Below, in pieces: positions 1,895-55,248 of a stretch of 64,000 nucleotides of DNA. Within the stretch, counting starts at the first letter, position 1, and each line of letters begins with the position of its first letter. The DNA is from an uncultured Gammaproteobacteria bacterium (GTDB lineage: Bacteria > Patescibacteriota > Microgenomatia > UBA1406): contig CAYPVH010000001.1 of assembly GCA_964414145.1 (NCBI GenBank), positions 156,851-220,850 of the forward strand, read 5' to 3'. The position numbers and the translations under genes were made by a program. The notes beneath the pieces were generated by a model, which worked only from the letters and a program-made list of their open reading frames with translations, was not told the DNA's origin and ran no database searches.

Positions 1895-1899
1895 AACCA

Positions 1900-6308: not shown

Positions 6309-7634
6309 ATGGACACAGACCTATTGTGGAAAAAAACACTAGATGAAATTGAAGTTGAAGTGTCATCAAACACCTTTGTTTCTTTTTTTAAAAAAACCCA
6401 ATTAACGGGTGTAGAAAACAATAGTCTTGTCATTAGTTGCCCAAATGGAGGGGTGGGGTTTGTTTTAAACAGCAAATATAAAAAACTTATTATAAATACT
6501 GCTTCAAAATACCTCAATCTTCCCATAAGTAGTGTTCGTTTTCAAAACGGAAAAACCAACAAAATTAAGCGAGACGCTGGTCCTCTTTTTAGCAATGAAA
6601 CAAGGACTAAAGAAGAATTAATAACGCTGTCTGGTTTATCAAACAGCTCTACGTTTGAAAATTTTGCTGTTTCTGTTTCCAACCAAATGGCCCAAGCAAC
6701 CGCCCTGGCAGTTGCTAATAACCCCGGCAACGTATACAACCCCCTCTTTATTTGGGGTGGGGTCGGGGTTGGTAAAACACACTTATTAAACGCGATTGGT
6801 ACAAAAATAATCAATAACACCTCACTCTCTGTTCTTTACTGTTCAACCGAAGACTTTACCAACGCTCTTGTTTATTCAATTCGTAACAAAAAAACCGACC
6901 TTTTCCGAAAAAAATACCGCAAAACAGACGTTTTGTTGCTTGATGATATTCAGTTTATTTCCGAAAGAGAATTTGTCCAAGAAGAGTTGTTTAACACTTT
7001 TAACAAGCTCCGTGATCAAAATAAACAAATTGTTTTTACCTCAGACAAACCACCTAAGTTTATTAATAAAATTGAAAAAAGACTTGTTTCCCGTTTTTTG
7101 AGTGGCTTAGTAGTTGATATACAAACGCCGGACTTTGAATTAAAAACAGCCATACTACTTATTAAAACCAGAGAAATGGGTCTAGAAATAGACATTGAAA
7201 CCGCCAAAATCATCGCTGCCAATATTGAAGAAATCAGAGAAATAGAGGGTTTTTTAATGAAGTTGTCGGCCTTAAAACAAATTGGAACCGAAATCAGTAA
7301 AGAACTTGTAGAAAGGTTACTTGTTCAAAACCAGGGAAATCGGCAGATAAAATACAGCGCCAAAGAAATTATTCGCGCCGTTAGTAGAGAAACGGGGGTT
7401 AGGTTAAAAGACATTAAAGATGACAATAGAAAACAAAACATTGTTCAGTCACGCCACCTAATAATGTATTTATTAAAAACGCTTACAAACCTTCCCTATG
7501 AGGATATTGCACATCTCCTGGGTAAGAAAGACCACACAACTGTTATGCACGGAGTTCAAAAAATCATTAACGAAATACCAAATAACGAAGACTTAAGGAA
7601 AAAGATCGAGTCAATAAAACTAATTTTCGTTTAG
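6309..7634 (+). CDS. dnaA: chromosomal replication initiator DnaA
   Basis: 441 aa. Has the AAA+ Walker A GGVGVGKTHLL, the box LLLDDIQF, and a C-terminal DNA-binding domain (RHLIMYLLK, DHTTVMHG). Confidence 0.97.
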   Translation: MDTDLLWKKTLDEIEVEVSSNTFVSFFKKTQLTGVENNSLVISCPNGGVGFVLNSKYKKLIINTASKYLNLPISSVRFQNGKTNKIKRDAGPLFSNETRTKEELITLSGLSNSSTFENFAVSVSNQMAQATALAVANNPGNVYNPLFIWGGVGVGKTHLLNAIGTKIINNTSLSVLYCSTEDFTNALVYSIRNKKTDLFRKKYRKTDVLLLDDIQFISEREFVQEELFNTFNKLRDQNKQIVFTSDKPPKFINKIEKRLVSRFLSGLVVDIQTPDFELKTAILLIKTREMGLEIDIETAKIIAANIEEIREIEGFLMKLSALKQIGTEISKELVERLLVQNQGNRQIKYSAKEIIRAVSRETGVRLKDIKDDNRKQNIVQSRHLIMYLLKTLTNLPYEDIAHLLGKKDHTTVMHGVQKIINEIPNNEDLRKKIESIKLIFV

Positions 7635-7736: not shown

Positions 7737-7758
7737 CTTGTACTATAATAACTACGTT

Positions 7759-8865
7759 ATGAATATAACTGTAGTACGGGAACGTTTTTTTGAGATTTTG
7801 CAAAAGTCGTCCTATTTTATCTCATCCAAAATTAACGACATAAAAGTGTTAAAAGGCGTTCTAATAGAAGCAAACAAAAACGGTGTTTATGTTAAAACCA
7901 CCAATATTAGCGAATACTTTCAGGGTGAAATTGGTGGAAAAGTCACAGAAGAGGGCAGTGTTTTGGTTGATTTCAAGGTCTTATATGAAGTTATTCGTAA
8001 TGTTAATGAATCAAAAATAGAAATAAACAAAAAAGGAAGTAACTTAGAAGTGATAAGCACTTCGGGAGTAGTTAAGATTCCCCTGTTTACTGAAGAAAAT
8101 TTTCCTACCATGCCAAAGGTTAACGAAGGTATCGAGGTTGATGGTAGGTATTTTGAGTCCGCAAACCTGAAGAAGATAGTCTTTAGTACAGCCACAGACG
8201 ATACAAGGCCAATATTAACTGGTGTGTGTTTTGATTTTTTAAGCAACGAAACAAGACTGGTTGGAACAGATGGTTTTAGAATGTCATTGTTGGTTTTAAA
8301 AAATAACAACAAGCAGGCGTCATTAGAAGAAAGATTGGTTATTCCTTCAAGAAGCCTGTCTTCGCTAGACAGGGTGTTTTCAAACGATTTGCAAAAAGTT
8401 CTGCTTTTAAAAAAGGAAAATAAAATTGTCTTTTCTGGAAAAGGCATAGTCTTAGTGGTAAGGTTGATTGATGGCGAGTACCCTCCCTATGAAAAGGTGA
8501 TTCCCAAAGATGAGGAAACAGAATGTTTATTAAAAACAGAAGACTTAAAGAAAGCACTTAAAACAACCCAGGTCTTTGCACGCGGCGGCTCTAATATGCT
8601 ACTAATAACAGTTTCCAAAAACAGCGTTGAGTTTTTAGCAAAAAGCCAGGGTTTGGGAGAGGCAAATTATGTTGTTAACAACATAGAAAAAAGCGGTAAA
8701 GATAATAAAATAACCCTAAACCACCGCTTTTTAGCGGAGTTTTCAGAAATATCGGAAGGGGGTGTGGTTTTTAAACTTATCAATCCTTTTTCACCGGTTA
8801 TTTTCTCAAATGCCAAAAATAAAAACTATCAACATATTATTATGCCTATCCGAACCCAAAAATAA
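7759..8865 (+). CDS. dnaN: DNA polymerase III beta sliding clamp
   Basis: About 368 aa with the three-domain clamp pattern (TDDTRPILTGV, LVGTDGFRM, GEYPPYEKVIP, IIMPIR). The ORF-track TTG at 7738 lies upstream of the TATAAT at 7744-7749. The ATG at 7759 is preferred. Confidence 0.95.
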   Translation: MNITVVRERFFEILQKSSYFISSKINDIKVLKGVLIEANKNGVYVKTTNISEYFQGEIGGKVTEEGSVLVDFKVLYEVIRNVNESKIEINKKGSNLEVISTSGVVKIPLFTEENFPTMPKVNEGIEVDGRYFESANLKKIVFSTATDDTRPILTGVCFDFLSNETRLVGTDGFRMSLLVLKNNNKQASLEERLVIPSRSLSSLDRVFSNDLQKVLLLKKENKIVFSGKGIVLVVRLIDGEYPPYEKVIPKDEETECLLKTEDLKKALKTTQVFARGGSNMLLITVSKNSVEFLAKSQGLGEANYVVNNIEKSGKDNKITLNHRFLAEFSEISEGGVVFKLINPFSPVIFSNAKNKNYQHIIMPIRTQK

Positions 8866-12474: not shown

Positions 12475-14586
12475 TCAGATTGTTTTTCTTTTGATTTTAA
12501 GAACAATAAGGGCAGCAGAGATTAGAGTTACTAGAAGCACAAATAAAATAATAAATAAGTTTTTATTAGTGTTTTTTGCTGGGGTAATTTGATCTTCTGG
12601 GGGTATAGTGCTATTGGTGATAGGATTTTGCTGGGGAGTGCTGTTTGCCAAGAACACGCTTGAGGGCACCGTTTGTGGTGTTTCAGTTTTAATTTTTTCA
12701 ATCACTTCAGAATTTGGTTTATATGCGGGGGAACTTGAGCGATAAAGGCTGTTATTAGTCTCAGAAAAATAAACAATATTTGTTTTCCTAAACTGTGAAA
12801 CTGTTTGAATCTGTGCTTGGCTTTGCTTTTCTGGTGGAGTTATTTTTAAGGCAAAACCAAATGGGGGCAGAGAATTATTGTTCAGCGCAAAAAAACCATC
12901 TTTATCGGCCCTGGTTTTAAAATATGTTAGGTTTCCCATCGAAGGAATAACAATTTCTACTTTCGCGTTAGGAATGGTTTCAAGCTTTTGGTTAAATATG
13001 AAACCACTCATTTGTGTTGGAATCAAAGAAACACTGTAGGGGTGCTTGTTTTCAACAGCTTCAACTTGTGTTACAGTCGTAATCAGTCGGGCCAAGCGTT
13101 TTAAAACCGTATCTTTCTGTATTGCTATTAAACTCATCTTCTCAACCACTAAATCAACCTTGTCGACGCTATCTGTGATTAGCACTTCAGGAACCAAGAG
13201 GCTAAACGCACCTGTAATATCAGCGCTGGTTTGGGCAACTTCTTCGCCTTTAATAAGCGCCTTTACAATTGCATTAGGGTGCGAAACTCTTCCCGTAATT
13301 GTTTGTATATTTTTGTCTCTTGTGTTTTGTGCATAAACTATTTCAGCAGGAGAGCCGCTATAATTAGTATCGGTGGGATCAATAATAATGTCGCGTCGCT
13401 CTTGTTTACCGGCCTTTTCAATAATTGGCTCATTGCTGTCTGCATACAACAAATCTCTTTTAAAATATTTTTGCTCCGGATCAATTACTGCCAGCCGACT
13501 TAAGGCATTATTCACGTTACTATTGTTTGGAGGAAACAAGAAACCGTCTTTATAGGGGAATAAAAAATAAGTACCCGGTTCAACTGCAAAATTAAACATT
13601 CCAGCGGGGTCGGTGTTAAAGGGATTTACAAAAAAAGGGTTATTGGGAACGGTTGTTTTTACAACTTGCTCATTATTATTAAGGTTTTTTAAAGTAACAG
13701 TGGTGTTTTTTACTGGTTCTAAATAAAGTGAGTCAATAATTTTACCGTATGGATCCCAAAAAATAGTAATACAGTTGGTGTTTGCCGGCTCAAGCCCTTG
13801 AGCGGGAGTAAATGTGGCTAGTTTCAATGCTCTGGTTAGGGCTTCTGTGTTGTTTTCAAGTCCAGACATGTCAAGTATTTGCAAGCCGTAAAAAGCATGG
13901 TCCAGGCCGGCCCGAGTATAACTATCAACAAGGTTAAGTGAAAACTCTCCATCGGGGCCTGCAAATATTTCATCTTTTGCTTTAGAATAAATTTTGAGTT
14001 TAGATTCCCAACCGGTTTCAATGTGACCAGCTTCGGCCTTATTTATAGAAGAAGTTCCTGCTGTCGGCTCCATTACTTCCGTTGGGCAAACAACTACACC
14101 ATTTTTGTCTTCAGCACATTCCCAATACGAACCCTGTTTGGCATAAGCATCCATACAACAAACCGTTTGGTCATTTTGGTCAATGCAGTCTGGGCTTCCT
14201 GCTTCAAACCAGGGGCACCTTTCATTACAAATTCCCTCACCCACCTTTTCTTGAATACAGGGGGTTTTTACTCCTTCACCAATTGGTAAACACTCCGGAT
14301 CACCGTCTGCGGGATTACAGAAAGTACGAGGCAAATTTCTTAAAAGATATATCGGAGTGTCTGGTTGAAAAACTCCCTGGCTGTTGTTTTGTAGGTCTAC
14401 AAAGTGGCCGAATTGGTTCTGTCCGTCTATCTCAGCCTCTGTATAGTTACGGGTAACGTCCAAACAACTTACTACCACGCTCTGACCACCTTCTTGGGCT
14501 TGTGATTTCTGGGGAGTAATAAGAATCAACAAAAACAAACTCAAAAAAACTAACTTCCATAACAATCCTTTTCTGATGGCTTGCAT
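12475..14586 (-). CDS. large secreted, C-terminally membrane-anchored surface protein with Cys-rich N-domain
   Basis: 703 aa with a signal peptide (LWKLVFLSLFLLILITPQKSQA). About 14 Cys lie in the first ~170 residues. There are carboxypeptidase-regulatory-like beta-sandwich motifs (ADKDGFFAL, ITGAFSL) and a C-terminal TM plus KIKRK. Confidence 0.6.
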   Translation of the reverse strand: MQAIRKGLLWKLVFLSLFLLILITPQKSQAQEGGQSVVVSCLDVTRNYTEAEIDGQNQFGHFVDLQNNSQGVFQPDTPIYLLRNLPRTFCNPADGDPECLPIGEGVKTPCIQEKVGEGICNERCPWFEAGSPDCIDQNDQTVCCMDAYAKQGSYWECAEDKNGVVVCPTEVMEPTAGTSSINKAEAGHIETGWESKLKIYSKAKDEIFAGPDGEFSLNLVDSYTRAGLDHAFYGLQILDMSGLENNTEALTRALKLATFTPAQGLEPANTNCITIFWDPYGKIIDSLYLEPVKNTTVTLKNLNNNEQVVKTTVPNNPFFVNPFNTDPAGMFNFAVEPGTYFLFPYKDGFLFPPNNSNVNNALSRLAVIDPEQKYFKRDLLYADSNEPIIEKAGKQERRDIIIDPTDTNYSGSPAEIVYAQNTRDKNIQTITGRVSHPNAIVKALIKGEEVAQTSADITGAFSLLVPEVLITDSVDKVDLVVEKMSLIAIQKDTVLKRLARLITTVTQVEAVENKHPYSVSLIPTQMSGFIFNQKLETIPNAKVEIVIPSMGNLTYFKTRADKDGFFALNNNSLPPFGFALKITPPEKQSQAQIQTVSQFRKTNIVYFSETNNSLYRSSSPAYKPNSEVIEKIKTETPQTVPSSVFLANSTPQQNPITNSTIPPEDQITPAKNTNKNLFIILFVLLVTLISAALIVLKIKRKTI

Positions 14587-14593
14587 TATACTA

Positions 14594-14623
14594 ATCTTAC
14601 AAAAGTATTTACAACTTTGTCAA
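14594..14623 (-). promoter_or_regulatory. promoter of the surface-protein gene
   Basis: On the minus strand: TTGACA (plus 14618-14623), 18-nt spacer ending TG, TAAGAT (plus 14594-14599), then 7 nt to the ATG at 14586. Confidence 0.5.
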
Positions 14624-14693
14624 AACAATCCACACAAAAAATGTAGACTATATGCACTTGTAAACCTTTTATGAATAAGATATTCTGTCTAGT

Positions 14694-15692
14694 ATGGCAA
14701 AAACATCAACAAAAAGTAACCCAAAACAAGACGCGGTAAAACTGGCAATGGAGCAGATTAAAAAGCAATATGGGAAAGGTGCAATTATGAGATTGGGAGA
14801 AAAGCCTATCGAAAAAATAGAAGTTTTGTCAACCGGAATTTTTTCGTTAGACACGGCGCTTGTAACAGGGGGACTGCCTCGTGGGCGGGTGATAGAAATT
14901 TTTGGTCCAGAGTCATCGGGAAAAACCACGATTTGTTTATCGATTATGGCAGAAACTCAAAAGAGCGGTGGCATCGCTGCTTTTATTGATGCCGAACACG
15001 CCCTTGACCCAGAATGGGCAAGAATTCTTGGGGTAGATCTTGATAATTTACTGGTTTCTCAGCCCGATACCGGCGAGCAGGCACTTGAAATTGCAGAAAC
15101 TTTAATCAGAAGTGGCGGAGTAGATTTGGTGGTTATAGATTCGGTTGCGGCACTAGTACCAAAATCTGAAATAGAAGGGGAAATGGGAGATTCGTCAATG
15201 GGTGTACAAGCTAGGCTGATGTCACAGGCATTAAGGAAATTGACCGGTGTTTTATCAAAATCAAAAACAACTGTAATTTTTACCAACCAAATTAGGCAGA
15301 AGATTGGCATTGTTTTTGGTAACCCCGAAACAACACCAGGTGGGCTCGCATTAAAATTCTATGCCTCGGTAAGAATGGACATTCGTCGAATTCAAGTGAT
15401 GAAAAAGGGAGACGTAATTACCGGAACAAAAACCAGAGTAAAAATAATCAAAAACAAAATGGCGCCCCCTTTTAAAGAAGCGGAAATTGTGATTACTTCA
15501 AAAGGAATCGATAAAGAGGGTTCGGTAGTTGACACAGCGGTAAAGTGGGGCATTTTAGCTAAAAGTGGCTCCTTTATTAAATATAAAGACGAAACTTTGG
15601 GTCAGGGTGCCGAATCAACAAAAGAAGCGCTCCAAAAAAATAAGAAACTATTTGAACAAATTAAAGCAGAAACCTTAAAAGCAGTTGTATAA
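14694..15692 (+). CDS. recA: recombinase RecA
   Basis: 332 aa with Walker [19 protein letters not shown], and L2-loop context. Confidence 0.98.
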
Positions 15693-15695
15693 AGA

Positions 15696-16385
15696 GTGAG
15701 TAGTAATTTAACCAATATTATTTTTCCCTCATTTTGTTTTGGTTGTACGCGTCCCGGTTATGGTTTTTGTTACTCCTGTCTTAAAAAATACACTAATCCT
15801 TTTGGTCAGAAGTGTCTTTATTGCGGTTCAAAATCTCTTTTTGGAATTAGTCATAGAAGGTGTAAAAGTCATAAAAATGCCATAGATGCTGTTTTTATCT
15901 TTTACTCGTATAAGGGTTTAATAAACAAAATACTTAAGAGAGTTAAGTACTCTTCTCAACCCCAGTTATTAAATAATTACTTAATGTTTATTCCAATGGA
16001 GCAGTTGTTTCTATTAAAAAAATGGTTGCAATTTTACCGATTAAATATAATTACACATATTCCACTTTTTAAAACAGATCATATTCAGCGAGGTTTTAAT
16101 CAATCAGAAATAATTGCCCGTTTTATTTCTCAAAAATTTGGTCTAAAACATATCTGTTTGCTAAAGAAAATCAAGAAAACAAAAAAACAATCACAAATCG
16201 AAAAAAAATTGCGAAGAAAAAATATTAATGGTGTTTTTACTAATCTGGAAACAGCTGCAGCAGACAGTGTTTTGTTGGTTGACGACGTTATTACAACAGG
16301 GGCAACAGTGACCGAGGCTGCCGCCACACTTCTGGCAGGGGGGGTAAAAAAAGTCTTCGCTCTGTCATTGTTCGGGGCTTTCTAG
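15696..16385 (+). CDS. comF: ComF-family phosphoribosyltransferase-like competence protein
   Basis: 229 aa with a GTG start 3 nt after the recA stop. Has an N-terminal double CxxC zinc ribbon and the C-terminal PRTase motif LLVDDVITTGATV. Confidence 0.8.
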   Translation: MSSNLTNIIFPSFCFGCTRPGYGFCYSCLKKYTNPFGQKCLYCGSKSLFGISHRRCKSHKNAIDAVFIFYSYKGLINKILKRVKYSSQPQLLNNYLMFIPMEQLFLLKKWLQFYRLNIITHIPLFKTDHIQRGFNQSEIIARFISQKFGLKHICLLKKIKKTKKQSQIEKKLRRKNINGVFTNLETAAADSVLLVDDVITTGATVTEAAATLLAGGVKKVFALSLFGAF

Positions 16386-17243
16386 TTAAAAAGGAAGCTC
16401 GATATGTTTTGTTAGTTTTTTTAAATGATTTTTAACCGTAATAAAAGAGCTGGTTATGGCCTTGTTTTTGTCTCCAGAATCTAATTTTGTGGTTTTTTCT
16501 TGATAAAGATGCCCACCCATCTCGTATTCATACAATTCCTTTTTAATGGGTTCGCCAAGCGCCGTATAGGCACCGGAAATTACATATTGAATTAAAAATT
16601 TTAAATAACCTATTTTTTCTGGTCTTCTAAACGAGGGGTAAAGATGGGGCTCTTTTAGTATTTTAAGCAATACCCCCATTTTTCTTGACCGCTGAACCAA
16701 GTCATGATCTTCTGCCAGTTTTAGTTTAATATCAAAACCACCAAGCTTAATAAATAGATTTTTTTCAATAATAATGTTAAAACCGGGGGCGAATGGCTTG
16801 CCGAGTAAGTTAAATGTGTCAATAATAAAATTGGTTAATTCAACCAGGAGTGCTTGAGTAGATGATTTGCTGTTTGTTGACAGGTGGGTTGTGTAGATTA
16901 AACCTTTATTTAAAAGCATTTCTTTGCTGAGCGTTGATAAAAAGTTCTTTGGAATACGAACGTCGGCGTCAAAAAAGACTAAATATTCCCCTTTGCTGTT
17001 TCTTGATCCATAATTCCTTTGTGCAGCAACCCCTTTATTATTCCCCTTAATAATACTTAGGTTAAGTTTTGATTTAAATTTAACAGCCTCCTTTATTGTA
17101 TTGTCGGTTGAGTCGCCATCAACTACTATTGTTTCAAAAAAGGGGTTGTTTTGTTTTGTTAAATCATTTAACAGAAGAGGTAGATATTTCTCTTCATTTA
17201 GAGTTGGAATGATAACCGAAAACATAAATTTATCTTTTTTCAT
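16386..17243 (-). CDS. family 2 glycosyltransferase
   Basis: 285 aa with the typical GT-A fold motifs FSVIIPTLNEEKYL, VVDGDSTD and FFDADV. Confidence 0.85.
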   Translation of the reverse strand: MKKDKFMFSVIIPTLNEEKYLPLLLNDLTKQNNPFFETIVVDGDSTDNTIKEAVKFKSKLNLSIIKGNNKGVAAQRNYGSRNSKGEYLVFFDADVRIPKNFLSTLSKEMLLNKGLIYTTHLSTNSKSSTQALLVELTNFIIDTFNLLGKPFAPGFNIIIEKNLFIKLGGFDIKLKLAEDHDLVQRSRKMGVLLKILKEPHLYPSFRRPEKIGYLKFLIQYVISGAYTALGEPIKKELYEYEMGGHLYQEKTTKLDSGDKNKAITSSFITVKNHLKKLTKHIELPF

Positions 17244-17278
17244 GGTTAATCTCTTCTTATTGTATACTATTTTTTAAG

Positions 17279-17422
17279 ATGAGGAAATATCTGGGTTGGT
17301 TTATACTTTTGTTTGGTCTATTTTTTTTGGGTTATTTTATCAACCAGCTTCTGTTCCAAAAAACTCAAAACCTGTCTCCAATTCCAAGCGATGACGTTAG
17401 GGTAAAAACAATAAACAACTAA
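17279..17422 (+). CDS. possible 47-aa membrane peptide (below ORF-track size cutoff)
   Basis: ATG at 17279 reads to TAA at 17420-17422 and encodes MRKYLGWFILLFGLFFLGYFINQLL..., which has one TM. TATACT lies at 17263-17268. No conservation evidence is available. Confidence 0.25.
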   Translation: MRKYLGWFILLFGLFFLGYFINQLLFQKTQNLSPIPSDDVRVKTINN

Positions 17423-17426
17423 ACTT

Positions 17427-17732
17427 TTAGTTTACTGGAATTTTAAATAAGGTCAGTTCAACCCCCAAGACGGTTTCGAGCAAGAAAAGTATCAAGTAAG
17501 CGCTGCTTAAGATTACCAATCCCAATACAGCCGAAAAAAAAGTTCCCTGAGCCTTTTTTAATTTATTAGCGTCGTCACCAGCTGTTAACCAACGAATTGC
17601 TCCAAGTGCAAACATTGCAAAAAGGATAATAAAAACCAGACCACCAAGCGCAACTATTAAGTTGTTAAAAAGCACTTCCAAACAGCTAAGTTGGGGAACG
17701 CCTTCTACTAAGCAACCACTCCAGTCTTTCAT
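17427..17732 (-). CDS. small two-TM pilin-like protein (VirB2/TrbC-like, T4SS_pilin type), paralog 1
   Basis: 101 aa. Shares the motif IRWLTAGDDANKLKKAQGTFFSAVLGLVIL between two hydrophobic helices. Confidence 0.6.
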   Translation of the reverse strand: MKDWSGCLVEGVPQLSCLEVLFNNLIVALGGLVFIILFAMFALGAIRWLTAGDDANKLKKAQGTFFSAVLGLVILSSAYLILFLLETVLGVELTLFKIPVN

Positions 17733-17777
17733 AATGAGTAGAACAAAAACCTAAGTAAAAATATTTAATTAGCTATG

Positions 17778-18125
17778 CTAAACTTCTCCAAATTTGGGGA
17801 TATAGATTTCTTTTGTGAAACCCATTCCAATTCCAAAAATGTTTTCAACCAATATTATTGCTCCCATTGACACAAATAAGATAATCAATCCGGTAACGGC
17901 AGTGGTAATTCTTTTTCTGGCTTTGTCAACTCTTTCTTTGTCGCCCCCAGATTGTATCCATTCTAAAGCTCCAAAAATTAGGTGGTAAAAAACGAATAAA
18001 CCAGCACCAACAAAAACGAGTCGAATTACCCACCCTAGTATTGATCCAAGCGAAAGGGCGTTGGTATTTAAAAATTCTGGCAAAACAACTGTTGCATTAA
18101 CTTGAGCCAAAAGCAATTTATCCAT
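17778..18125 (-). CDS. small two-TM pilin-like protein, paralog 2
   Basis: 115 aa with the motif LEWIQSGGDKERVDKARKRITTAVTGLIIL. Confidence 0.6.
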   Translation of the reverse strand: MDKLLLAQVNATVVLPEFLNTNALSLGSILGWVIRLVFVGAGLFVFYHLIFGALEWIQSGGDKERVDKARKRITTAVTGLIILFVSMGAIILVENIFGIGMGFTKEIYIPKFGEV

Positions 18126-18178
18126 TTAATTAAATATATAATTTCTAAAGATTACCTTTTTAAAATATACAAACAAAG

Positions 18179-19876
18179 TTACAGGCTGTCAAGTTGATGT
18201 ATTTGATTTTGGTGCAAAAAGAGAACCTGTTCATCGTCTATAATGCCAAAATACTCTGTAGTTTTCAGCTTATTGTTAAAAATAGACTTAACTATAGCAC
18301 CTTTTTCATTAACAACTACTATCCGGCCGCTTTTGGTATCAAGTAGGTAAAGGTACTTGGTTCCTGCCGATTTATATACTTTGGTAAGCCTGTTTTTATT
18401 AAAATCAATTTTTATGTCAAATGCTTCTTTTGCTCCTGAAGTAAATTTCCACAAGTCTTGGGTGGTTAATATATAAACAGAATAATCAATAGCAAAATTG
18501 GTTGCTGTGTCTAGATTAATGCTTTCACCGGTCTGAAAATAGCTTATTGCTGAACTATAACCACCCTCTGTTGGTACATATTTATATATTTCGTCACTTT
18601 CCTGATCAAGCGAATAAATATTGCCATTAAAAACCTTTAAGTCAATAATATTTTTCCAATTCTTACTCTTTGAAATAATCTTCTCCAGTTTTCCGGCGTT
18701 TGATTTATAAATACCGTTGTTCTTGTCATAAACAAATACCTCATTGTCGTAAGAATTAATTATCGACGCGGTATTAAGATTGTTTAGGTTGAAGGTGTCA
18801 TAACTTTTATTGTCTAGGTTTACCAAAAAGGCCTTTTTATTTTTAGTGTCTAAAACTGAAAGAAAATTATCATTGAAAGCAACGGATGTTATTTTCAAGT
18901 TATTAGACAGCAGCGAAAGATCAAAATAAACCTCGCCTTTTTCCGTTTCTGCTGCTCCGGTTAGTTTGTTTAGCTCATCTATATCGTTACTTAATTTTAA
19001 TATTATGCTGTTTTTTTCCGGGTAAGTTTTTTTAAGTTGTTCAATCTCTTTTTTAAGTTGAATAGATTTTTCTGTCAGTTCTTTGGGGTTTTCCAGACCG
19101 TTATTTTTCATTTGATCAATTTCTTTGTTGATTGTTTCAATTTTCTCGGCAAAAATCCGGTTCTGGTGTTTACTGTACTGTTGTTTGGCAATTTGTAATG
19201 TTTTAAATAACAAAAACAATACAAGCAATAAGGCAACTGCTTTTATAACCCACCTTTTATTAACTGTTTTTGTTAATCTTGACTGACCTGTTGTGTAGTT
19301 GGTGTTGCTTGCTGCTTCTTCTTTAAAAAATAACTCTTTTGTGCTTGGCAACTCGGCACTGATTTTTACTACCAAAATTCCCGGGTTCGTTTTTGCCGTA
19401 AGGTTATCTTTTATCGAGTCAATGTCTGTGCTTTTTGCCAGCTCTTCAAAATTAATTTCTGGGCTTTTTTCAAGAGCTTCGTTTGCAAGCAATATTAAAA
19501 TATCATTACCAAAAACCTCTCCCTCAAACAGATTGCCTGGCGCCTCGCGGTAGATAGTTTTTTTTCTCAGTAAAAAAATTTGCCCATGCTTTTTCTGAAC
19601 GAAGAGCCGAGAATTATATCTGTAGGCAGCAACATACGACTTAAGAGCGTACTTTTGTTCAATAGATGTTTTAATAAAAGTGGAGAAAGCTTTTAAACTA
19701 TCTATCTCAACTTGTTCAAGTGCTTCCTTAATTGCTGGATTAATGCTATGCAGTGGTTCAGCGTTTACATTTTCTGCTAGTTCATAGATTAGAAATAAAC
19801 CCTTATCGGCAACAAAGCCCTGTCTGTTGTGGTCTTTATCGTTCTTTAAGTTTACTGTGAATATTTCTTCAAACAT
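18179..19876 (-). CDS. hypothetical bitopic membrane protein (cytoplasmic N-domain, TM, coiled coil, repeat-rich extracytoplasmic C-domain)
   Basis: 565 aa with a single TM (WVIKAVALLLVLFLLF) near residue 210. This is followed by a Lys/Glu/Gln coiled coil and a beta-rich Asn/Tyr-rich region. Confidence 0.55.
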   Translation of the reverse strand: MFEEIFTVNLKNDKDHNRQGFVADKGLFLIYELAENVNAEPLHSINPAIKEALEQVEIDSLKAFSTFIKTSIEQKYALKSYVAAYRYNSRLFVQKKHGQIFLLRKKTIYREAPGNLFEGEVFGNDILILLANEALEKSPEINFEELAKSTDIDSIKDNLTAKTNPGILVVKISAELPSTKELFFKEEAASNTNYTTGQSRLTKTVNKRWVIKAVALLLVLFLLFKTLQIAKQQYSKHQNRIFAEKIETINKEIDQMKNNGLENPKELTEKSIQLKKEIEQLKKTYPEKNSIILKLSNDIDELNKLTGAAETEKGEVYFDLSLLSNNLKITSVAFNDNFLSVLDTKNKKAFLVNLDNKSYDTFNLNNLNTASIINSYDNEVFVYDKNNGIYKSNAGKLEKIISKSKNWKNIIDLKVFNGNIYSLDQESDEIYKYVPTEGGYSSAISYFQTGESINLDTATNFAIDYSVYILTTQDLWKFTSGAKEAFDIKIDFNKNRLTKVYKSAGTKYLYLLDTKSGRIVVVNEKGAIVKSIFNNKLKTTEYFGIIDDEQVLFLHQNQIHQLDSL

Positions 19877-19888
19877 GCTACTAATAAT

Positions 19889-20158
19889 TTATAGCAAAAT
19901 TAGAGAGAAAACCAGTAACGAAAATGAAAGAAAGATTTGCAAATAAGAAAAAACAACAAATAAAGAAGTACTTTTTTTTGATTCTTCAAACAAATCTGCC
20001 ATATAGGCTGACGCAGTTTTGTCCATTTTCTTTAGCTGTTGATGAAAAATAAGCGAGTAAACAACAAAACCAATAGCAATAAGTGAAGCAGCAATCTTAA
20101 AAACTAGAGTTATCCAATTAGTGTTTTGTATAAACTGTATTAGATTAGACAGATCCAT
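19889..20158 (-). CDS. hypothetical two-TM membrane protein
   Basis: 89 aa with two TM helices. Overlaps the upstream gene by 14 nt. Confidence 0.45.
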   Translation of the reverse strand: MDLSNLIQFIQNTNWITLVFKIAASLIAIGFVVYSLIFHQQLKKMDKTASAYMADLFEESKKSTSLFVVFSYLQIFLSFSLLVFSLILL

Positions 20159-20696
20159 TTTTGTTATATCGAACTAAATTATTGATTATATTTACAACGT
20201 TATCTGGGTGAGGGGCTTTAAGAAACTCAATATTTGGAAGGGCGCCTGCCGTTTCAACATATATGTCGGCATAGTTGAAAAGACTGGCAAAAAACCCAAG
20301 GCTTTTTTTATCTATTTCTTCAACATTTTTTAATATCGCTGTTGTGGTGTGGCTATATAGTAAATTAACCGCATCTATATCTATAGCTCTGCGGTTGGTA
20401 ACAATACCTAAATTAAAATACCAAAAAAATAACTTGGTTAATGAAAAAGAAAAAACCAAAATATACCAAGCCATTATAATAAATAGTTGCTGAGTTGAAC
20501 TTAGGGGTAGTTTAGGTATAAAATCGGCAAATATAAGCGGTACAAGGGTTAAAAGCATTACCCACAATACCCAGGTAAAATTAGTAATTGGATGAGCCCT
20601 AATAATCATTACCACCTTTTCCTTTGGGTTTTTGAGCAATGATTCAAGATCGGTACGATAAAATAATGAATTAAAAGTCTTTTTTTCTACCTTCAT
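20145..20696 (-). CDS. membrane protein with bacterial PH (YdbS/YdbT-like) domain
   Basis: 183 aa with two TM helices, then IVTNRRAIDID ... YADIYVETAG ... FLKAPHPDNV, which resembles the bPH_2 family. Confidence 0.55.
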   Translation of the reverse strand: MKVEKKTFNSLFYRTDLESLLKNPKEKVVMIIRAHPITNFTWVLWVMLLTLVPLIFADFIPKLPLSSTQQLFIIMAWYILVFSFSLTKLFFWYFNLGIVTNRRAIDIDAVNLLYSHTTTAILKNVEEIDKKSLGFFASLFNYADIYVETAGALPNIEFLKAPHPDNVVNIINNLVRYNKNGSV

Positions 20697-20704
20697 TATT
20701 TAAA

Positions 20705-20713
20705 ATTATATCA
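20705..20713 (-). promoter_or_regulatory. extended -10 (TGATATAAT) for the 20696-17427 operon
   Basis: The minus strand reads TGATATAAT, followed by 8 nt and then the ATG at 20696. Confidence 0.5.
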
Positions 20714-20720
20714 GATCAAG

Positions 20721-20749
20721 TTGACAGGGTGAGGCGATTATCATAAAAT
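20721..20749 (+). promoter_or_regulatory. near-consensus promoter upstream of rny
   Basis: TTGACA 20721-20726, 17-nt spacer, TAAAAT 20744-20749. This would give a leader of about 128 nt. A second element, TGATATAAT at 20871-20879, lies 4 nt before the rny ATG. Confidence 0.5.
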
Positions 20750-20883
20750 TGCTTTGTTATTAGTAGTTGTGACAAGAATTATGGTGTTAAATTTTTCTTT
20801 ATCTGTTTTACTCCCCAATCATTGTTGTGGGTGGATTACTGTGACACGATAAAACACCTAGTCTTGCCACTGATATAATTTTT

Positions 20884-22287
20884 ATGAAAAATTTAGTCCT
20901 TAAGTTATTTCCCCATTTAGTTAAAGAACAAGACCAAATAATTGAAGCGGCCAAAGAAAAGGCCAGACAAATCACGTTGCAGGGACAGGAGCAGCTCAGA
21001 GACTTATCAGATAAAATCTCAAGCTTGCAAAAAAAGATCGAAAGAGAAGAGGCGGCTGTAAGAGAAGAGAAGCGTGGTGTAGAAAAAGAAAAGTCGTTAC
21101 TTGAGAATGAAAAAAAGAGGCTGGAAGAAAAAAAGCAAGAACTGTTGGCCAAATTTCAAAAATTGGCCGGTCTTACTCCAGAGGAGGCAAGAGAAAACCT
21201 TCTATCTTTTTGGGAACAAAAACTAACCGGTGAAGTTGCCAAACGGGTTAGAGAAGCCGAAGAAGAGGTGAAAACCAAAGTTGAAGAAAAAGCTAAGGAA
21301 ATTTTGGTTGATACCATGAGGTATGGTGCGACCGATTATGTAGTTGAATACGCTCTTTCAACAATAGATCTGCCTAGTGATGAATACAAAGGCAGAATTA
21401 TTGGTAAAGAAGGTAGAAATATTCGAGCCTTTGAGTTGGTAACAGGGGTTGAGGTTGATTTGGATGAGGAAGGTGTTGTAAAAATCTCTTCATTTGATCC
21501 TGTTAAACGTGAAGTTGCCCGCGTTGCTTTGGAAAAGTTAATTAAAGACGGCAGAATTCAACCCTCAAGAATCGAAGAGGTGGTTGCTAAAGTCAAAGAA
21601 GAAATAAATAAAATAATCTATAAAGAAGGCGAAAAACTTTGTTATGAGGTGGGTGTATTTAATTTACCTCGTGAATTGGTTGAATTGTTGGGAAGATTTA
21701 AATATCGCTTTTCGTACGGGCAAAACTTAGTTCAACACACCCTTGAATGTACAAAAATTGGAGTTGCTTTAGCTCATGAACTTGGCGCCGACGTTAATAT
21801 TGTTAGGCTAGCCTGTCTTTTACACGACGTGGGGAAAGTTGTTACCGACAAAGAAGGTTCACATGTGCAGCTTGGAATTGAAGTGCTTAAAAAACACCGC
21901 TTTCCCAAAGAAACTATTGAAGCAATCGAAAGTCATCACGAAGACAAACCCTTTAGTTCAGTTGAAGGCGTTATAGTTTATTTAGCCGACGCTATTTCCG
22001 GTAGCCGCCCAGGAGCAAGACGTGAAGATGTAACCGAGTATATTCGCAGAATGAGGGAAATTGAAGACTTTATTAAAGAAAAAGAAGGAGTAAATGACGT
22101 GGCAGTTCTTCAAGCTGGGCGAGAAATAAGAGTTGTGGTTAATCCTAAAGAAATGACCGATGATCAAACAGTGGTATTTATTGCTAAACTAAGAGAAGAG
22201 CTGGCTAAATATTTCTCCAACATTCCCGGTCAAATGAAAATCACAGCAATTCGAGAATTCAGAACTACCGAAACGACTAGAAAATAA
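20884..22287 (+). CDS. rny: ribonuclease Y
   Basis: 467 aa with a Lys/Glu coiled coil, a KH domain (GRIIGKEGRNIRAFE) and an HD domain (LLHDVGK ... HHED). No N-terminal TM is present in this frame. Confidence 0.93.
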   Translation: MKNLVLKLFPHLVKEQDQIIEAAKEKARQITLQGQEQLRDLSDKISSLQKKIEREEAAVREEKRGVEKEKSLLENEKKRLEEKKQELLAKFQKLAGLTPEEARENLLSFWEQKLTGEVAKRVREAEEEVKTKVEEKAKEILVDTMRYGATDYVVEYALSTIDLPSDEYKGRIIGKEGRNIRAFELVTGVEVDLDEEGVVKISSFDPVKREVARVALEKLIKDGRIQPSRIEEVVAKVKEEINKIIYKEGEKLCYEVGVFNLPRELVELLGRFKYRFSYGQNLVQHTLECTKIGVALAHELGADVNIVRLACLLHDVGKVVTDKEGSHVQLGIEVLKKHRFPKETIEAIESHHEDKPFSSVEGVIVYLADAISGSRPGARREDVTEYIRRMREIEDFIKEKEGVNDVAVLQAGREIRVVVNPKEMTDDQTVVFIAKLREELAKYFSNIPGQMKITAIREFRTTETTRK

Positions 22288-24684: not shown

Positions 24685-24713
24685 TTGACAACAAAAATAG
24701 TTTCGTCTAGCAT
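24685..24713 (+). promoter_or_regulatory. promoter of the triple pilin-like cluster
   Basis: TTGACA 24685-24690, 17-nt spacer, TAGCAT 24708-24713, then 7 nt to the ATG at 24721. The ORF-track TTG start at 24685 is the -35 element itself. Confidence 0.5.
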
Positions 24714-24720
24714 ATACTTT

Positions 24721-25017
24721 ATGAACTTGATTGCTCAAGGAGTGGATATTGGTAGTGTTTTTGCGCCGGCAGCCAAATTTAGTAAGGTTTCAGATTTGGT
24801 AACCCTCGGTGGGCGATTAGCAGCTTTAGTGGGAGGGTTCCTGGTGATTGCTAGTTTTGCTTACTCGGCCTATTTTTATATGTCAGCTCACGGTGACACA
24901 AAAAATATTGAAAAGGCAAAAACTGCCATGACTTATAGCATAGTGGGTTTAGTAATTGTGGCGGCCAGCTATTGGATAACGCAATTGATTGCCAAGTTTT
25001 TAGGACAAAATTTTTAA
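24721..25017 (+). CDS. small two-TM pilin-like protein, paralog 3
   Basis: 98 aa with the motif YFYMSAHGDTKNIEKAKTAMTYSIVGLVIV. Confidence 0.6.
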   Translation: MNLIAQGVDIGSVFAPAAKFSKVSDLVTLGGRLAALVGGFLVIASFAYSAYFYMSAHGDTKNIEKAKTAMTYSIVGLVIVAASYWITQLIAKFLGQNF

Positions 25018-25044: not shown

Positions 25045-25401
25045 ATGAATCCAGATGATCCTTTAGGTATTGATGAAATAGTTCCCCCAATTGGCGGTGC
25101 AGATGTATTGGACGCAAATAGCGGGATTGAAAGCTTTATCAACCGCGGGTTTATGTTGGCCTTTACTTTGTTTGCGCTTTACGCCCTATTAAACTTTGTT
25201 CTGGCTGCCTTTAGTTATTTAAATGCAGGGGGGGAATCAAAAAATGTGGAAAAAGCTCAAAAAATGATTACCCAAACATTTATTGGTTTGGCTTTAATGT
25301 CACTAACTTTTGTAATCGCCGGAATTATCGGGGCGGTATTTTTTGGAGATTGGTTTGCTCTGCTTGACTTAACAAATCAGTTAAATAATATAATGAATTA
25401 A
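25045..25401 (+). CDS. small two-TM pilin-like protein, paralog 4
   Basis: 118 aa with the motif FSYLNAGGESKNVEKAQKMITQTFIGLALM. Confidence 0.6.
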   Translation: MNPDDPLGIDEIVPPIGGADVLDANSGIESFINRGFMLAFTLFALYALLNFVLAAFSYLNAGGESKNVEKAQKMITQTFIGLALMSLTFVIAGIIGAVFFGDWFALLDLTNQLNNIMN

Positions 25402-25402
25402 T

Positions 25403-25756
25403 ATGCGCAATAAAATCTTAGCTTTACTGGGAGAAGGTACAGCGGTTGGGGTTCCCGAAACAAATGCGCTTGGCAAGCTGATCGGAAGTGTTTTACAGTT
25501 GGCAGCTACGCTCGGTACCTTTTTTTTGCTGTTTAATTTATTAATGGGGTCTTTAAACTGGATTAATTCTCAAGGTGATAAAGAAAAAATTGCCAAAGCC
25601 CAGAAACAGATTACCAATGCTTTTATTGGACTAGTATTGCTTATTATAGTTATGGCGCTTTACTTTACTATTATTGTTGATATCTTTGGTATATTTGAGC
25701 GCGACCCGGTAACAAACGAAATTAAATTTGTTTTACCCTCTCTTTTTGGGCCTTAA
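25403..25756 (+). CDS. small two-TM pilin-like protein, paralog 5
   Basis: 117 aa with the motif LNWINSQGDKEKIAKAQKQITNAFIGLVLL. Starts 1 nt after the paralog 4 stop. Confidence 0.6.
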   Translation: MRNKILALLGEGTAVGVPETNALGKLIGSVLQLAATLGTFFLLFNLLMGSLNWINSQGDKEKIAKAQKQITNAFIGLVLLIIVMALYFTIIVDIFGIFERDPVTNEIKFVLPSLFGP

Positions 25757-26841: not shown

Positions 26842-27927
26842 GTGGAAGAAAATATTTTGGCACACTTGTCGTTTTCATATTTCTCAGGAATCGGACCAAA
26901 CATTTTTAGTAAACTTGTAAAAAGGTTCAAGTCAGCACAAAAGGCTTATGGAGCAACTAGAAATGAGCTAACAGCCGCACTTGGCCAAGCATTGGTTGAT
27001 CGTTTTGTTGACTTTAGAAATGAATTTAGTCCGGTAGAAGCTAAAAAACAACTTAACAAGCAGGGTATTGGATATAAAGCACAAATTGAAGTTGATTACC
27101 CGCCACTCTTAAACAAAATCAGCGATCCGCCTATAGGGCTTTTTTATAAAGGCAACTGGCAAAATATTAACTGGAAGAATGATAAGTTTTTTACAATTGT
27201 TGGTACCAGAAAACCGAGTCACTATGGTAAAAATCAAGCCATAAATACTGCTAAAGCGTTAGCAGGGCTTGGGGTCGTGCTTGTTTCCGGTCTTGCTATT
27301 GGGATTGATGCCTGTGTTCATAACGCTGTACTGTCACTAAAGAACGGGCGGGCAATTGCAGTACTGGGTGGCGGTTTAAATAACGGTTATCCACAAAGCA
27401 ACCGCTTCTTGTATCAAAAAATTATTAACAATGGTTTGGTTGTTTCAGAGTTTCCGCCCCAAAGCTTTGTGGTTAAGGGGATGTTTGTTTCCAGAAATAG
27501 AATTGTGGCGGGATTAAGTAGGGGCACATTGGTAATTGAGGGGACTAAAAAATCAGGAACTTTAATTACGGCCAAATATGCCGCTAACCAGGGTAGGGAA
27601 GTATTTGCTCTTCCGGGTGAAATAGATAACTATCTTTCAGAAGCTCCGCTTTTACTAATTAAGCAAGGCGCCGAAGTTTACACAAAAGTTGAAGATATAG
27701 AAAATTTTTTGGCGGTAAAAAGAACGGTTAATACAACACAGAACAAAACAACTCTTACCAAGTCTCAGCTTTTAATTGTTAAAAAGCTTCAGGTTAACGA
27801 ACTAACTACTAACGAACTGTTAAAAGACCAAGCCAATTCTTTTCAAAACTTAATAGTTGACCTGTCACTTCTTGAGCTTTTGGGTATAATTGAGCAGAGT
27901 AAATTAGGCAAGTGGATTGTTAAATAA
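26842..27927 (+). CDS. dprA: DNA-processing protein DprA
   Basis: 361 aa with a GTG start. Rossmann-like DprA core (IVGTRKPSHYG, VSGLAIGIDA, VSEFPP, FVSRNRIVAGLS, VIEGTKKSGTLITA). Confidence 0.9.
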   Translation: MEENILAHLSFSYFSGIGPNIFSKLVKRFKSAQKAYGATRNELTAALGQALVDRFVDFRNEFSPVEAKKQLNKQGIGYKAQIEVDYPPLLNKISDPPIGLFYKGNWQNINWKNDKFFTIVGTRKPSHYGKNQAINTAKALAGLGVVLVSGLAIGIDACVHNAVLSLKNGRAIAVLGGGLNNGYPQSNRFLYQKIINNGLVVSEFPPQSFVVKGMFVSRNRIVAGLSRGTLVIEGTKKSGTLITAKYAANQGREVFALPGEIDNYLSEAPLLLIKQGAEVYTKVEDIENFLAVKRTVNTTQNKTTLTKSQLLIVKKLQVNELTTNELLKDQANSFQNLIVDLSLLELLGIIEQSKLGKWIVK

Positions 27928-54934: not shown

Positions 54935-55231
54935 TTAGTTTTGGTTTTTTATTCAAGCTTCTGAATTTATTCAAAATTAATAATTCGAAATTCCAAATTT
55001 AGATATTGTAATTTGATATTGTTTGCTTTCCGATTCTGAGGGTCCGTCTCTCGTATTCCGCAAGCTGGAGTACCAATATGACATATTCACCCGCCGTTAG
55101 AGGCGGGAACAATGTAGCAATGAAACAGTGAAACACCTAAGCATTTTCCTAGCTATTATTTAGTAAATTGATAACTAAGCTTATCCCTATATTCCTATCA
55201 TGTTTGTTATTTGTTTTTTGGAATTTGTTTG

Positions 55232-55248
55232 CCCTCCGATTCGGAGGG
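55232..55248. repeat. perfect 7-bp-stem hairpin CCCTCCG-ATT-CGGAGGG
   Basis: Read directly from the sequence. It lies inside the dubious N-terminal extension of ORF 55168. Confidence 0.7.

Follow-up and report, generated by a model that had tools for sequence, protein, structure and literature searches.

Arrays of VirB2-like pilin genes in Patescibacteria were reportedly described by Wang et al. in Cell in 2023. Such arrays comprise 2-11 genes, are abundant in Microgenomatia and often lie apart from virB4; pilins and VirB4 occur together in 1,948 assemblies and are adjacent in only 1,135 (Quinonero-Coronel et al. 2025, PMC12102498). The arrays have since been reviewed (PMC12857230). What the T4SS and its VirB2-like pilins do in Patescibacteria has been called completely unknown, although both are essential in the sole species tested genetically (PMC11665869, PMC12857230). 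The canonical VirB2/TrbC/TraA pilins (PF04956) are small proteins with two transmembrane (TM) helices and a basic loop between them. Among signalling proteins, PstP and PknD from M. tuberculosis and PppA from P. aeruginosa are bitopic, one TM helix joining a signalling domain in the cytoplasm to a domain outside the cell; the YdbS/YdbT-type bPH_2 proteins (PF03703) have two TM helices followed by a bPH domain.

The locus described here lies in a 64,000-nucleotide stretch of DNA, the window. We propose, with a probability of about 0.6, that it is composed of two adjacent units, a sensor-like gene trio and a T4SS_pilin pair with its own promoter, and not of one five-gene machine.

Gene organization and two pilin arrays

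The relevant features, with the basis of each assignment, are as follows.

20705-20713, minus strand: extended -10 promoter-like element TGATATAAT (sequence reading)
20145-20696, minus strand: 183-aa membrane protein, first gene of the trio (ORF and hydropathy)
19889-20158, minus strand: 89-aa DUF5657 protein (PF18901 profile match)
18179-19876, minus strand: 565-aa bitopic protein (AF2 model and Foldseek)
18164-18192, minus strand: sigma-70-type promoter-like site TTGACA-17-TATATT (11/12 consensus match)
17778-18125, minus strand: P1, 115-aa VirB2-like pilin paralog (PF18895 family, paralogy)
17427-17732, minus strand: P2, 101-aa VirB2-like pilin paralog (PF18895 above cut-off)
24685-24713, plus strand: promoter-like site TTGACA-17-TAGCAT before Q1-Q3 (sequence reading)
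24721(24685)-25017, plus strand: Q1, pilin paralog (PF18895, 29.1 bits)
25045-25401, plus strand: Q2, pilin paralog (PF18895, 17.5 bits, below the cut-off of 26.6)
25403-25756, plus strand: Q3, pilin paralog (PF18895, 26.9 bits)

The five minus-strand ORFs are present at the coordinates claimed in the initial annotation, in the order it gave and with gaps of at most 53 nt; successive genes are spaced by a 14-nt overlap and then by 12-, 53- and 45-nt gaps, and hydropathy predicts 2, 2, 1, 2 and 2 TM segments in their products, in gene order. Its description of the pilins' partner genes as encoding uncharacterised membrane proteins also holds.

P2 matches the T4SS_pilin family PF18895 with 31.0 bits (gathering score 26.6) and P1 reaches 22.2 bits (E 1.5e-4), under that score. 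They are true paralogs with 30% identity over 61 residues (BLASTP, E 3e-9); phmmer connects P1 to the paralog at 25403-25756 (E 1e-16) and to P2 (4e-8), and P1 also shows a weak NCBIfam match to a Mycoplasma ICE pilin-like family (E 0.015). By hydropathy both are two-TM hairpins with a basic loop, in which they resemble the canonical VirB2/TrbC/TraA pilins. The pilin assignment made earlier holds in that both proteins belong to the PF18895 family, but neither matches the canonical TrbC/VirB2 model PF04956 at E<=1. They further differ from the canonical pilins in that no virB3-virB4 follows them and in their host, presumably a monoderm lacking an outer membrane.

Three further tandem PF18895 paralogs, Q1-Q3, had been overlooked. 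P1 and Q2, which score below the family cut-off, are tied to the other paralogs by phmmer (E 1e-16 to 1e-4). The loop motif previously noted in the two small proteins can be read in all five paralogs as G-[DE]-x3-[ILV]-x-K-A-[KRQ], except that D replaces G in P2. Array Q1-Q3 adjoins uppS, and this pilin-uppS adjacency is kept in the distant relatives L010, L089 and L090. The promoter-like site at 24685-24713 indicates that Q1 starts at the ATG at 24721 and not at the listed TTG at 24685; the orthologous arrays in L006, L007 and L009 are likewise preceded by TTGACA-17-TAnnnT.

P1 and P2 thus belong to the known Patescibacteria-type VirB2-like pilin family and are nothing new in themselves. Like the described arrays they are tandem divergent paralogs of the same Pfam family (they share 30% identity; the mean reported for such arrays is 25%), and the arrays are likewise chromosomal, origin-proximal (dnaA lies at 6309-7634 here) and often apart from virB4. 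In contrast to those arrays, P1 and P2 stand directly behind, and co-directional with, a bPH/DUF5657/PP2C-propeller module, with their predicted promoter embedded in its last gene; the cited papers on Patescibacterial VirB2-like arrays say nothing of such a setting.

The earlier statement that the window lacks a secretion ATPase, VirB6 or relaxase was borne out. Pfam scans of 36 ORFs outside the five-gene set, which comprise the listed ORFs of at least 265 aa except the RecA, RNase Y, S1 and EamA genes (identified by sequence or other analyses) plus four shorter ones, detected no T4SS component, and so no VirB4, T4CP, VirB6 or relaxase. No Walker A motif occurs in the truncated ORF at 1-1900, which on visual inspection appears DUF4012-like (MELRPGGGFIGS motif). 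About 80 related contigs likewise showed none of the four components at distances of up to 10 kb from the homologous locus, and the only large Walker-A protein clusters within 10 kb in 86 loci are ComM-like and FeoB-like. P1 and P2 accordingly have no VirB4-centred cluster nearby, counting components within 20 CDS of virB4. In relatives, VirB4 is encoded elsewhere in the Roizmanbacteria genome carrying L010, which has the trio (published Table S1), and VirB4 and TrsD in another Roizmanbacteria genome (published Table S3). Since relatives encode VirB4 elsewhere, a distant T4SS, the finding that the initial annotation had named as speaking against a distinct pilin structure, probably explains the pilins, and by analogy this particular genome would also carry VirB4 outside the window.

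The bPH, DUF5657 and PP2C-propeller trio

The first product of the trio, of 183 aa, has TM helices at residues 42-60 and 71-89 and a C-terminal divergent bPH_2-like domain. Its identification as a bPH-domain protein stands by way of its orthologs, of which 19/28 match PF03703 bPH_2 (best E 5.6e-6) and 9/28 match bPH_3, but not by the window protein itself, which has no Pfam match at E<=10. Its predicted plan resembles that of the YdbS/YdbT-type proteins; unlike them, it is too divergent to score, and DUF5657 and the 565-aa protein always accompany it.

The 89-aa product, correctly described earlier as a two-TM protein, is a hairpin with a basic loop whose gene overlaps the upstream 183-aa gene by 14 nt. 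It belongs to the DUF5657 family (PF18901, 30.8 bits, above the cut-off of 25), as do 32/32 of its orthologs (best E 1.4e-17), none of which matches the PrgI or VirB3 Pfam models. Its kinship with the pilins is not detectable, hhalign against the pilin profile giving a probability of 2.7%.

The 565-aa product is composed of a PP2C/PPM-fold domain (residues ~1-175), one TM helix (209-227), a long helix spanning 207-306 that forms a coiled coil of ~100 residues ending at about 306, and a C-terminal six-bladed beta-propeller (~315-565). The initial annotation had recognized a bitopic protein with a coiled coil, and its repeat-rich outer part corresponds to the predicted propeller (AF2, Foldseek). 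The arrangement points to a cytoplasmic N-terminal domain and an extracellular propeller. In the full-length AF2 model the propeller (residues 315-565) has a pLDDT of about 88, and its top Foldseek matches are NHL, Pizza6 and Drp35 (E 6e-10). Some members of the family show weak Pfam matches to DUF5128 or SGL.

A separate AF2 model of the N-terminal domain (pLDDT 83.7) has the PP2C phosphatases tPphA, PppA and PstP as its top Foldseek matches in the PDB (best match E 5.7e-7, probability 1.0, TM 0.64), and nearly all among the 50 matches listed are PP2C-type phosphatases. One family member is named 'PPM-type phosphatase domain-containing protein' in UniRef, and Pfam PP2C gives a weak match in 1/32 family N-domains (E 0.0056). 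Across the family only G119 and D125 are invariant in this domain. The consensus reads VLE and FTT at the presumed positions of the PPM DG motifs (DGxGG and SDG-type), which were placed without a computed alignment. With only one Asp invariant, the domain is probably a pseudophosphatase, catalytically inactive judging from its residues; the family keeps some PP2C-like acidic positions, so residual phosphatase activity is conceivable.

The membrane-anchored bacterial PP2C proteins PstP and PppA share the PPM fold with the N-terminal domain and are among its top structural matches, and the overall layout of the 565-aa protein resembles that of PstP, PknD and PppA. Its NHL-like propeller also resembles the NHL beta-propeller sensor of PknD. 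It differs from the known PP2C phosphatases in its shorter N-terminal domain (~175 aa versus ~235), and from PP2C/PknD-type receptors in the ~100-residue coiled coil between membrane and propeller; unlike in PP2C/PknD-type systems, no partner kinase or FHA protein was identified. The family is large: at E<=1e-3 it counts 4,912 cluster representatives, of which 676 reach E<=1e-30. It is covered by no Pfam model, and our literature searches turned up no mention of it.

Predicted promoters and gene neighbourhoods in relatives

Among 86 loci, the three genes of the trio stand side by side in each one that has sequence on the upstream side; the bPH-like gene precedes the DUF5657 gene in 53 loci, and independent gene calls in L089 and L090 bear out the arrangement. 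This constant adjacency, together with the 14-nt overlap and 12-nt gap, defines the trio as a module. Its carriers are Roizmanbacteria and other Patescibacteria, probably of the class Microgenomatia. The element TGATATAAT precedes the 183-aa gene, 8 nt ahead of its ATG, and from this element the trio would be expressed as a leaderless or near-leaderless transcript.

A second promoter-like site, at 18164-18192, overlaps the stop codon of the 565-aa gene, with its -35 hexamer within the last codons (Leu-Asp-Ser, CTT GAC AGC). CTTGACA is invariant in 6 aligned loci, and CTTGACA-17-TATAnT is invariant at synonymous sites in 15/15 distinct relatives in which a co-directional pilin gene follows. None of the family's other C-termini, where the pilins are not co-directional, has it. 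The site would thus act as a promoter and probably drives P1 and P2.

Most lineages have the pilin pair convergent or 2-8 kb off, in some with a sigma gene and a mevalonate operon between it and the trio, and the gene next after the 565-aa gene often encodes an ECF sigma factor (4-nt overlap in L089). Nevertheless, 32/37 non-redundant lineages with enough flank carry a pilin pair no more than 8.5 kb downstream of the trio, 5 lineages having no pilin within 6-10 kb downstream, and pilins are the commonest neighbour family after the trio itself (45/83 loci versus at most 27 for any other). Conserved proximity, the sole evidence here, suggests a functional link between trio and pilins, and with 32/37 lineages some coupling of the two is possible.

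Proposed function and alternative explanations

We propose that the first unit (20696-18179) encodes a translationally coupled bPH_2-type, DUF5657 and PP2C-propeller trio that would act as an envelope-spanning sensor, signalling or scaffold complex. On its coiled-coil stalk, ~15 nm outside the membrane, the propeller would bind a ligand or partner from outside, and the PP2C-like domain would pass the signal on to cytoplasmic partners. The second unit (18125-17427) would be the pair of divergent pilins of the Patescibacteria-specific family PF18895, with a strong promoter of its own lying within the end of the 565-aa gene. P1, P2 and Q1-Q3 are most likely subunits for a Patescibacterial T4SS derived from the monoderm (MPF-FATA) type, the genes for its VirB4/TrsD core presumably lying at another place in the genome.

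Another explanation, which we regard as unlikely, is that the trio proteins are diverged or analogous T4SS accessories working with the pilins and a distant VirB4, such as a PrgA/PrgB-like adhesin or stalk, a VirB8/VirB6 replacement or a PppA-like post-translational regulator. That Microgenomatia have few or no detectable VirB6 and VirB8 homologs, and that no adhesin was found in Patescibacteria (PMC12102498), agrees with this, as do the outward-facing stalk-plus-head architecture predicted here, the conserved trio-pilin neighbourhood and the rank of PppA, a PP2C regulator of a T6SS, among the top structural matches. However, 0/3 trio proteins match any T4SS profile, DUF5657 shows neither pilin kinship nor PrgI/VirB3 matches among its orthologs, the trio never adjoins a VirB4-like ATPase, and in many lineages the gene directly following it encodes an ECF sigma factor.

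The initial annotation regarded all five genes as one operon whose products may work in a distinct surface or envelope structure; on this view no VirB4-type ATPase would be needed, and the trio would serve as assembly platform or anchor. Co-directional genes, short gaps, pilins persistently near the trio and the lack of a T4SS ATPase within 10 kb in ~80 related loci favour this, and no terminator-like site was found between the 565-aa gene and the pilins, so read-through co-transcription may occur. A five-gene operon is nonetheless probably wrong, as the pilins have a conserved, apparently dedicated promoter and the trio persists without co-transcribed pilins, most lineages having them convergent or cut off by unrelated operons and 5 lacking them nearby; the structure itself is improbable, for related genomes have VirB4 elsewhere and no VirB2-type filament is known without VirB4 (established T4SS knowledge; PMC12857230).

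That the PF18895 proteins form no filaments here and are small hairpin membrane proteins with another role, labelled pilins through remote similarity, is more doubtful still: PF04956 is unmatched, 2/5 paralogs fall under the PF18895 cut-off, their genes are set among housekeeping genes and the cited papers report no observed pilus, only a 'potential to elaborate conjugative pili' (PMC12857230), but membership is clear for 3 paralogs with the other 2 linked by paralogy, the hairpin with its basic loop fits the VirB2 design, and in other Patescibacteria PF18895 genes lie beside virB4, trsD and prgI and are reported essential together with the T4SS (PMC12102498; PMC12857230).

Returning to the two-unit organization, the pilins are known and ordinary, and the adjoining sensor-like module is uncharacterised and moderately interesting. 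The analysis brings to light the large family of the 565-aa protein, in which a PP2C-like domain and a beta-propeller are joined across the envelope. Its members always occur with bPH_2 and DUF5657 proteins, and their genes stay close to pilin genes and often directly precede one for an ECF sigma factor. A bolder and rather improbable extension is that the VirB2-like pilins have in the trio a partner that went unrecognised throughout the lineage; it could be the missing membrane platform, the host-contact head or the switch of the Patescibacterial pilus where no VirB6, VirB8 or adhesin is detected. If so, the conserved neighbourhood would represent a new functional unit within the apparatus for epibiont attachment or secretion. 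Should the module sense host contact or control the genes of pilus or secretion, it would offer a handle on how ultrasmall epibionts perceive and engage their hosts; otherwise, the trio still represents conserved, uncharacterised envelope biology of this lineage.

Locus layout and genomic setting

The locus consists of five minus-strand ORFs, all located where the initial annotation had placed them and separated by no more than 53 nt: a 14-nt overlap joins the first two, and spacers of 12, 53 and 45 nt come next in order. The hydropathy check of transmembrane (TM) topology gave 2, 2, 1, 2 and 2 segments across the five products.

Genes of the locus (ORF list and hydropathy; window positions)
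20145-20696, minus: 183-aa ORF, 2 TM segments
19889-20158, minus: 89-aa ORF, 2 TM segments
18179-19876, minus: 565-aa ORF, 1 TM segment
17778-18125, minus: 115-aa ORF (P1), 2 TM segments
17427-17732, minus: 101-aa ORF (P2), 2 TM segments

The window is AT-rich (GC about 35%) housekeeping chromosome close to the replication origin, with dnaA at 6309-7634 and dnaN at 7738-8865. One flank of the locus carries recA, a comF-like gene and a GT2 glycosyltransferase gene, and the other RNase Y, HU, S1 and uppS. The competence/recombination genes recA and comF-like (14694-16385) and dprA (26842-27927) bracket the pilin-bearing region; comF near type IV secretion system (T4SS) loci has been noted in another Patescibacteria class, ABY1 (PMC12102498). 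Elsewhere in the window, a 731-aa fusion (42995-45190, minus) joins a DegT/DnrJ aminotransferase domain to FemAB and GNAT-like domains, an unusual cell-wall-related architecture, and ORFs of 703 aa (12475-14586, minus; sole match a sub-threshold CarboxypepD_reg) and 343 aa (55168-56199, plus) are essentially without family assignment. In the exact-sequence look-up the 565-aa and SpoIID-like window proteins had no record, and the EamA protein was confined to contigs no longer than about 3 kb.

The three-gene envelope module

A total of 86 related loci were gathered for comparison, a 12-sequence alignment serving to collect the genome and metagenome relatives. Two close and two distant relatives came from the exact look-up, six loci from GTDB genomes labelled Roizmanbacteria or Patescibacteria group, and 75 from metagenomes; GC-rich candidates (L076-L080 and others) encode unrelated propeller proteins and were left out. 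Wherever upstream sequence exists, the genes for the 183-aa, 89-aa and 565-aa proteins (hereafter the trio) are adjacent and co-directional. The 183-aa protein of the window has no Pfam match of its own; its earlier designation as a bPH-domain protein is nevertheless reasonable, since bPH_2 is found in 19 of 28 orthologs and bPH_3 in 9. A PDB-sequence profile search with the family returned nothing significant. The 89-aa protein is a DUF5657 protein, PF18901 being matched by 32 of 32 orthologs. It was considered as a cryptic pilin and as VirB3/PrgI, and both candidates were rejected: hhalign against the pilin family profile gave a probability of 2.7%, and PrgI/VirB3 Pfam models matched 0 of the 32 orthologs.

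The 565-aa protein matches nothing in Pfam or NCBIfam. A word-indexed homolog search returned the same 4 proteins from the single sequence or from a 52-sequence profile, and it was an exhaustive HMMER profile search that revealed the family, with 4,912 cluster representatives passing E<=1e-3, of which 676 reach E<=1e-30. Most of the top 150 matches are full-length (about 520-750 aa), and no Pfam domain was detected among the members of this set that were tested. The protein had been described as bitopic, with a coiled coil and a repeat-rich outer domain, and the AF2 model (three-sequence alignment) bears this out: it shows one TM helix, a long helical stretch (207-306) and, modelled with confidence, a six-bladed beta-propeller at the C-terminus, for which Foldseek ranks NHL, Pizza6 and Drp35 propellers highest (E about 6e-10). 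When re-predicted with 32 family sequences (pLDDT 83.7), the N-terminal domain matched almost exclusively PP2C/PPM phosphatases (best E 5.7e-7, probability 1.0, TM 0.64), including tPphA, the T6SS regulator PppA, the membrane-anchored PstP, Stp1, RsbX and SpoIIE; independently, UniRef names one Roizmanbacteria member "PPM-type phosphatase domain-containing protein". At the sequence level the PP2C signal is faint: only 1 of 32 N-terminal domains matched Pfam PP2C (E 0.0056), G119 and D125 are the only invariant positions, and the positions tentatively equated with the PPM DG metal-binding motifs read VLE and FTT in the family consensus. This faintness suggests either a pseudophosphatase or a highly atypical enzyme. 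A PDB-sequence profile search with the domain found nothing significant. Judged by the charges flanking the TM helix and by the absence of a signal peptide, the PP2C-like domain would be cytoplasmic and the propeller extracellular.

In many lineages the 565-aa gene is directly followed by genes for an ECF-type sigma-70 factor, an approximately 80-aa single-TM protein and an approximately 200-aa polytopic protein, homologs of which were not found in the window. In L089 the sigma gene and the 565-aa gene overlap by 4 nt.

Sigma, ~80-aa and ~200-aa genes after the 565-aa gene in related loci
L089: 12124-13521
L090: 11892-13280
L010: 2033-3443
L003: 2106-2675

On the other side, directly upstream of the bPH-like gene and on the same strand, clades outside that of the window encode a protein of about 184 aa with an N-terminal TM helix (cluster 5, 25 loci: L021, L024, L026, L028 and about 20 more). 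This protein, a possible fourth component of the module, is absent from the window. The same Patescibacteria synteny (RNase Y, trio, pilin pair, GT2) is found on the 6-kb contig L008 (CAZEVA010000062.1), which bears the label 'uncultured Gammaproteobacteria bacterium' and is probably mis-binned.

Pilin paralogs and the secretion core

The 115-aa and 101-aa proteins are paralogs (30% identity, E 3e-9) that had been read as VirB2/TrbC-like pilins. The pilin assignment stands through PF18895 (T4SS_pilin, gathering score 26.6), which the 101-aa protein passes with 31.0 bits and the 115-aa protein matches at 22.2 bits (E 1.5e-4), but neither protein matched canonical TrbC/VirB2 in the Pfam scan. 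Against NCBIfam the small proteins gave a single weak match, to a Mycoplasma ICE pilin-like family. Searching every window ORF with phmmer brought up three further tandem PF18895 paralogs, absent from the initial annotation, so that the window carries five pilin genes in two arrays.

The second pilin array
24685-25017, plus: Q1, PF18895 29.1 bits (ATG 24721 likely start)
25045-25401, plus: Q2, PF18895 17.5 bits
25403-25756, plus: Q3, PF18895 26.9 bits

PF18895 is the family that defines the VirB2-like pilins of Patescibacteria (Quinonero-Coronel et al. 2025, PMC12102498). In that study pilins occur in 1,948 VirB4-carrying assemblies and adjoin virB4 in only 1,135; 441 arrays hold 2-11 divergent paralogs each (mean identity 25%), especially in Microgenomatia and Saccharimonadia, and T4SS genes often lie near dnaA and dnaN. 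Such arrays are treated as known, and the function of the system as unknown, in a review from 2025 and a perspective from 2024 (PMC12857230, PMC11665869). Divergent pilin paralogs without a neighbouring ATPase are thus not new, and the pilins of the window are of an ordinary, known type.

As the initial annotation had noted, the window holds no T4SS ATPase, VirB6 or relaxase: Pfam scans of 36 ORFs beyond the five-gene set, which took in all listed ORFs of at least 265 aa except the RecA, RNase Y, S1 and EamA genes (identified by sequence or other analyses), matched only housekeeping and envelope enzymes. The ORF at 1-1900 (minus, running off the window start) was considered as VirB4 and rejected, as by eye it resembles DUF4012 proteins and it has no Walker A motif; a large protein with the motif MELRPGGGFIGS, probably DUF4012-like, is encoded there and at 13051-15360 of related locus L011. 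None of the 86 related loci encodes a VirB4-like protein. VirB4 is listed as present in the source genome of L010, Roizmanbacteria RIFCSPLOWO2_01_FULL_41_22 (PMC12102498 Table S1), and another Roizmanbacteria genome carries VirB4 and TrsD as genes 1011-1012 (PMC12102498 Table S3). The pilin pair most probably serves a T4SS whose VirB4/TrsD core sits elsewhere in the genome.

Predicted promoters and the relation of the pilins to the trio

A sigma-70 promoter-like TTGACA-17-TATATT (11/12 consensus match) lies at 18192-18164, its -35 hexamer coinciding with the Leu-Asp-Ser codons at the extreme end of the 565-aa gene. Wherever a co-directional pilin comes next (15 distinct sequences), CTTGACA is kept without exception while neighbouring codons vary freely, and the 565-aa protein ends ...LD[SKN][LF]; in every other clade it ends ...KIYKIE and TTGACA is absent from that stretch. 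This synonymous-site invariance tied to a downstream pilin gives good support to a functional promoter embedded in the gene end. The trio has its own TGATATAAT extended -10 element 8 nt before the ATG of its first gene. The second array is preceded by a conserved TTGACA-17-TAnnnT at 24685-24713, whose -35 box coincides with the listed TTG start of Q1 (24685); ATG 24721 is therefore probably the true start, giving 98 aa in keeping with orthologs of 96-98 aa, and the transcript is probably leaderless. The terminator scan found no terminator-like site in 17200-21000, so read-through from the trio into the pilins may occur.

Pilins are the next commonest neighbour of the trio (45 of 83 loci, against at most 27 for any other family). 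When the loci are collapsed into 57 groups at 85% identity, 37 groups have sufficient downstream sequence, and 32 of these carry the pair no more than 8.5 kb downstream of the 565-aa gene. Immediate co-directional adjacency is confined to the window's own clade, which shows long-range collinearity from dnaN through a Wzy-like gene. Most of the remaining clades have a convergent pair, the 565-aa gene being followed by the reversed pilins, then Fic and DNA ligase; in further lineages the pair stands beside uppS, beyond the ECF sigma gene, the 80-aa and 200-aa membrane protein genes and an entire mevalonate operon. The second array of the window adjoins uppS, an adjacency kept in the distant relatives L010, L089 and L090. 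By best-hit typing, the uppS-linked pair would be ancestral and the counterpart of the window's three-gene array, and the pair that follows the 565-aa gene would form a second type, found also 7-8 kb downstream in L047 and L056.

The initial annotation proposed that the five genes build a single ATPase-independent structure. The conserved promoter ahead of the pilins, their variable orientation and distance among relatives, and the presence of VirB4 elsewhere in relatives' genomes weaken this proposal. Proximity of pilins and trio nonetheless persists across divergence so deep that the 565-aa proteins are only 24-30% identical, which leaves room for a functional link. The best-supported picture, drawn from sequence comparison and structure prediction, is of two units: a tightly coupled three-gene envelope module kept together across the family, and a VirB2-like pilin pair with a separate predicted promoter. 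The module would act as a transmembrane sensor or scaffold, with a stalked outward propeller and an inward PP2C-like domain, a layout comparable to those of PstP and of PknD, a kinase with an NHL propeller; that many clades have an ECF sigma gene next to it counts towards this reading. The literature searched makes no mention of DUF5657, nor of Patescibacteria, PP2C and propeller combined. While the pilins are ordinary, the trio represents an undescribed family that merits follow-up.
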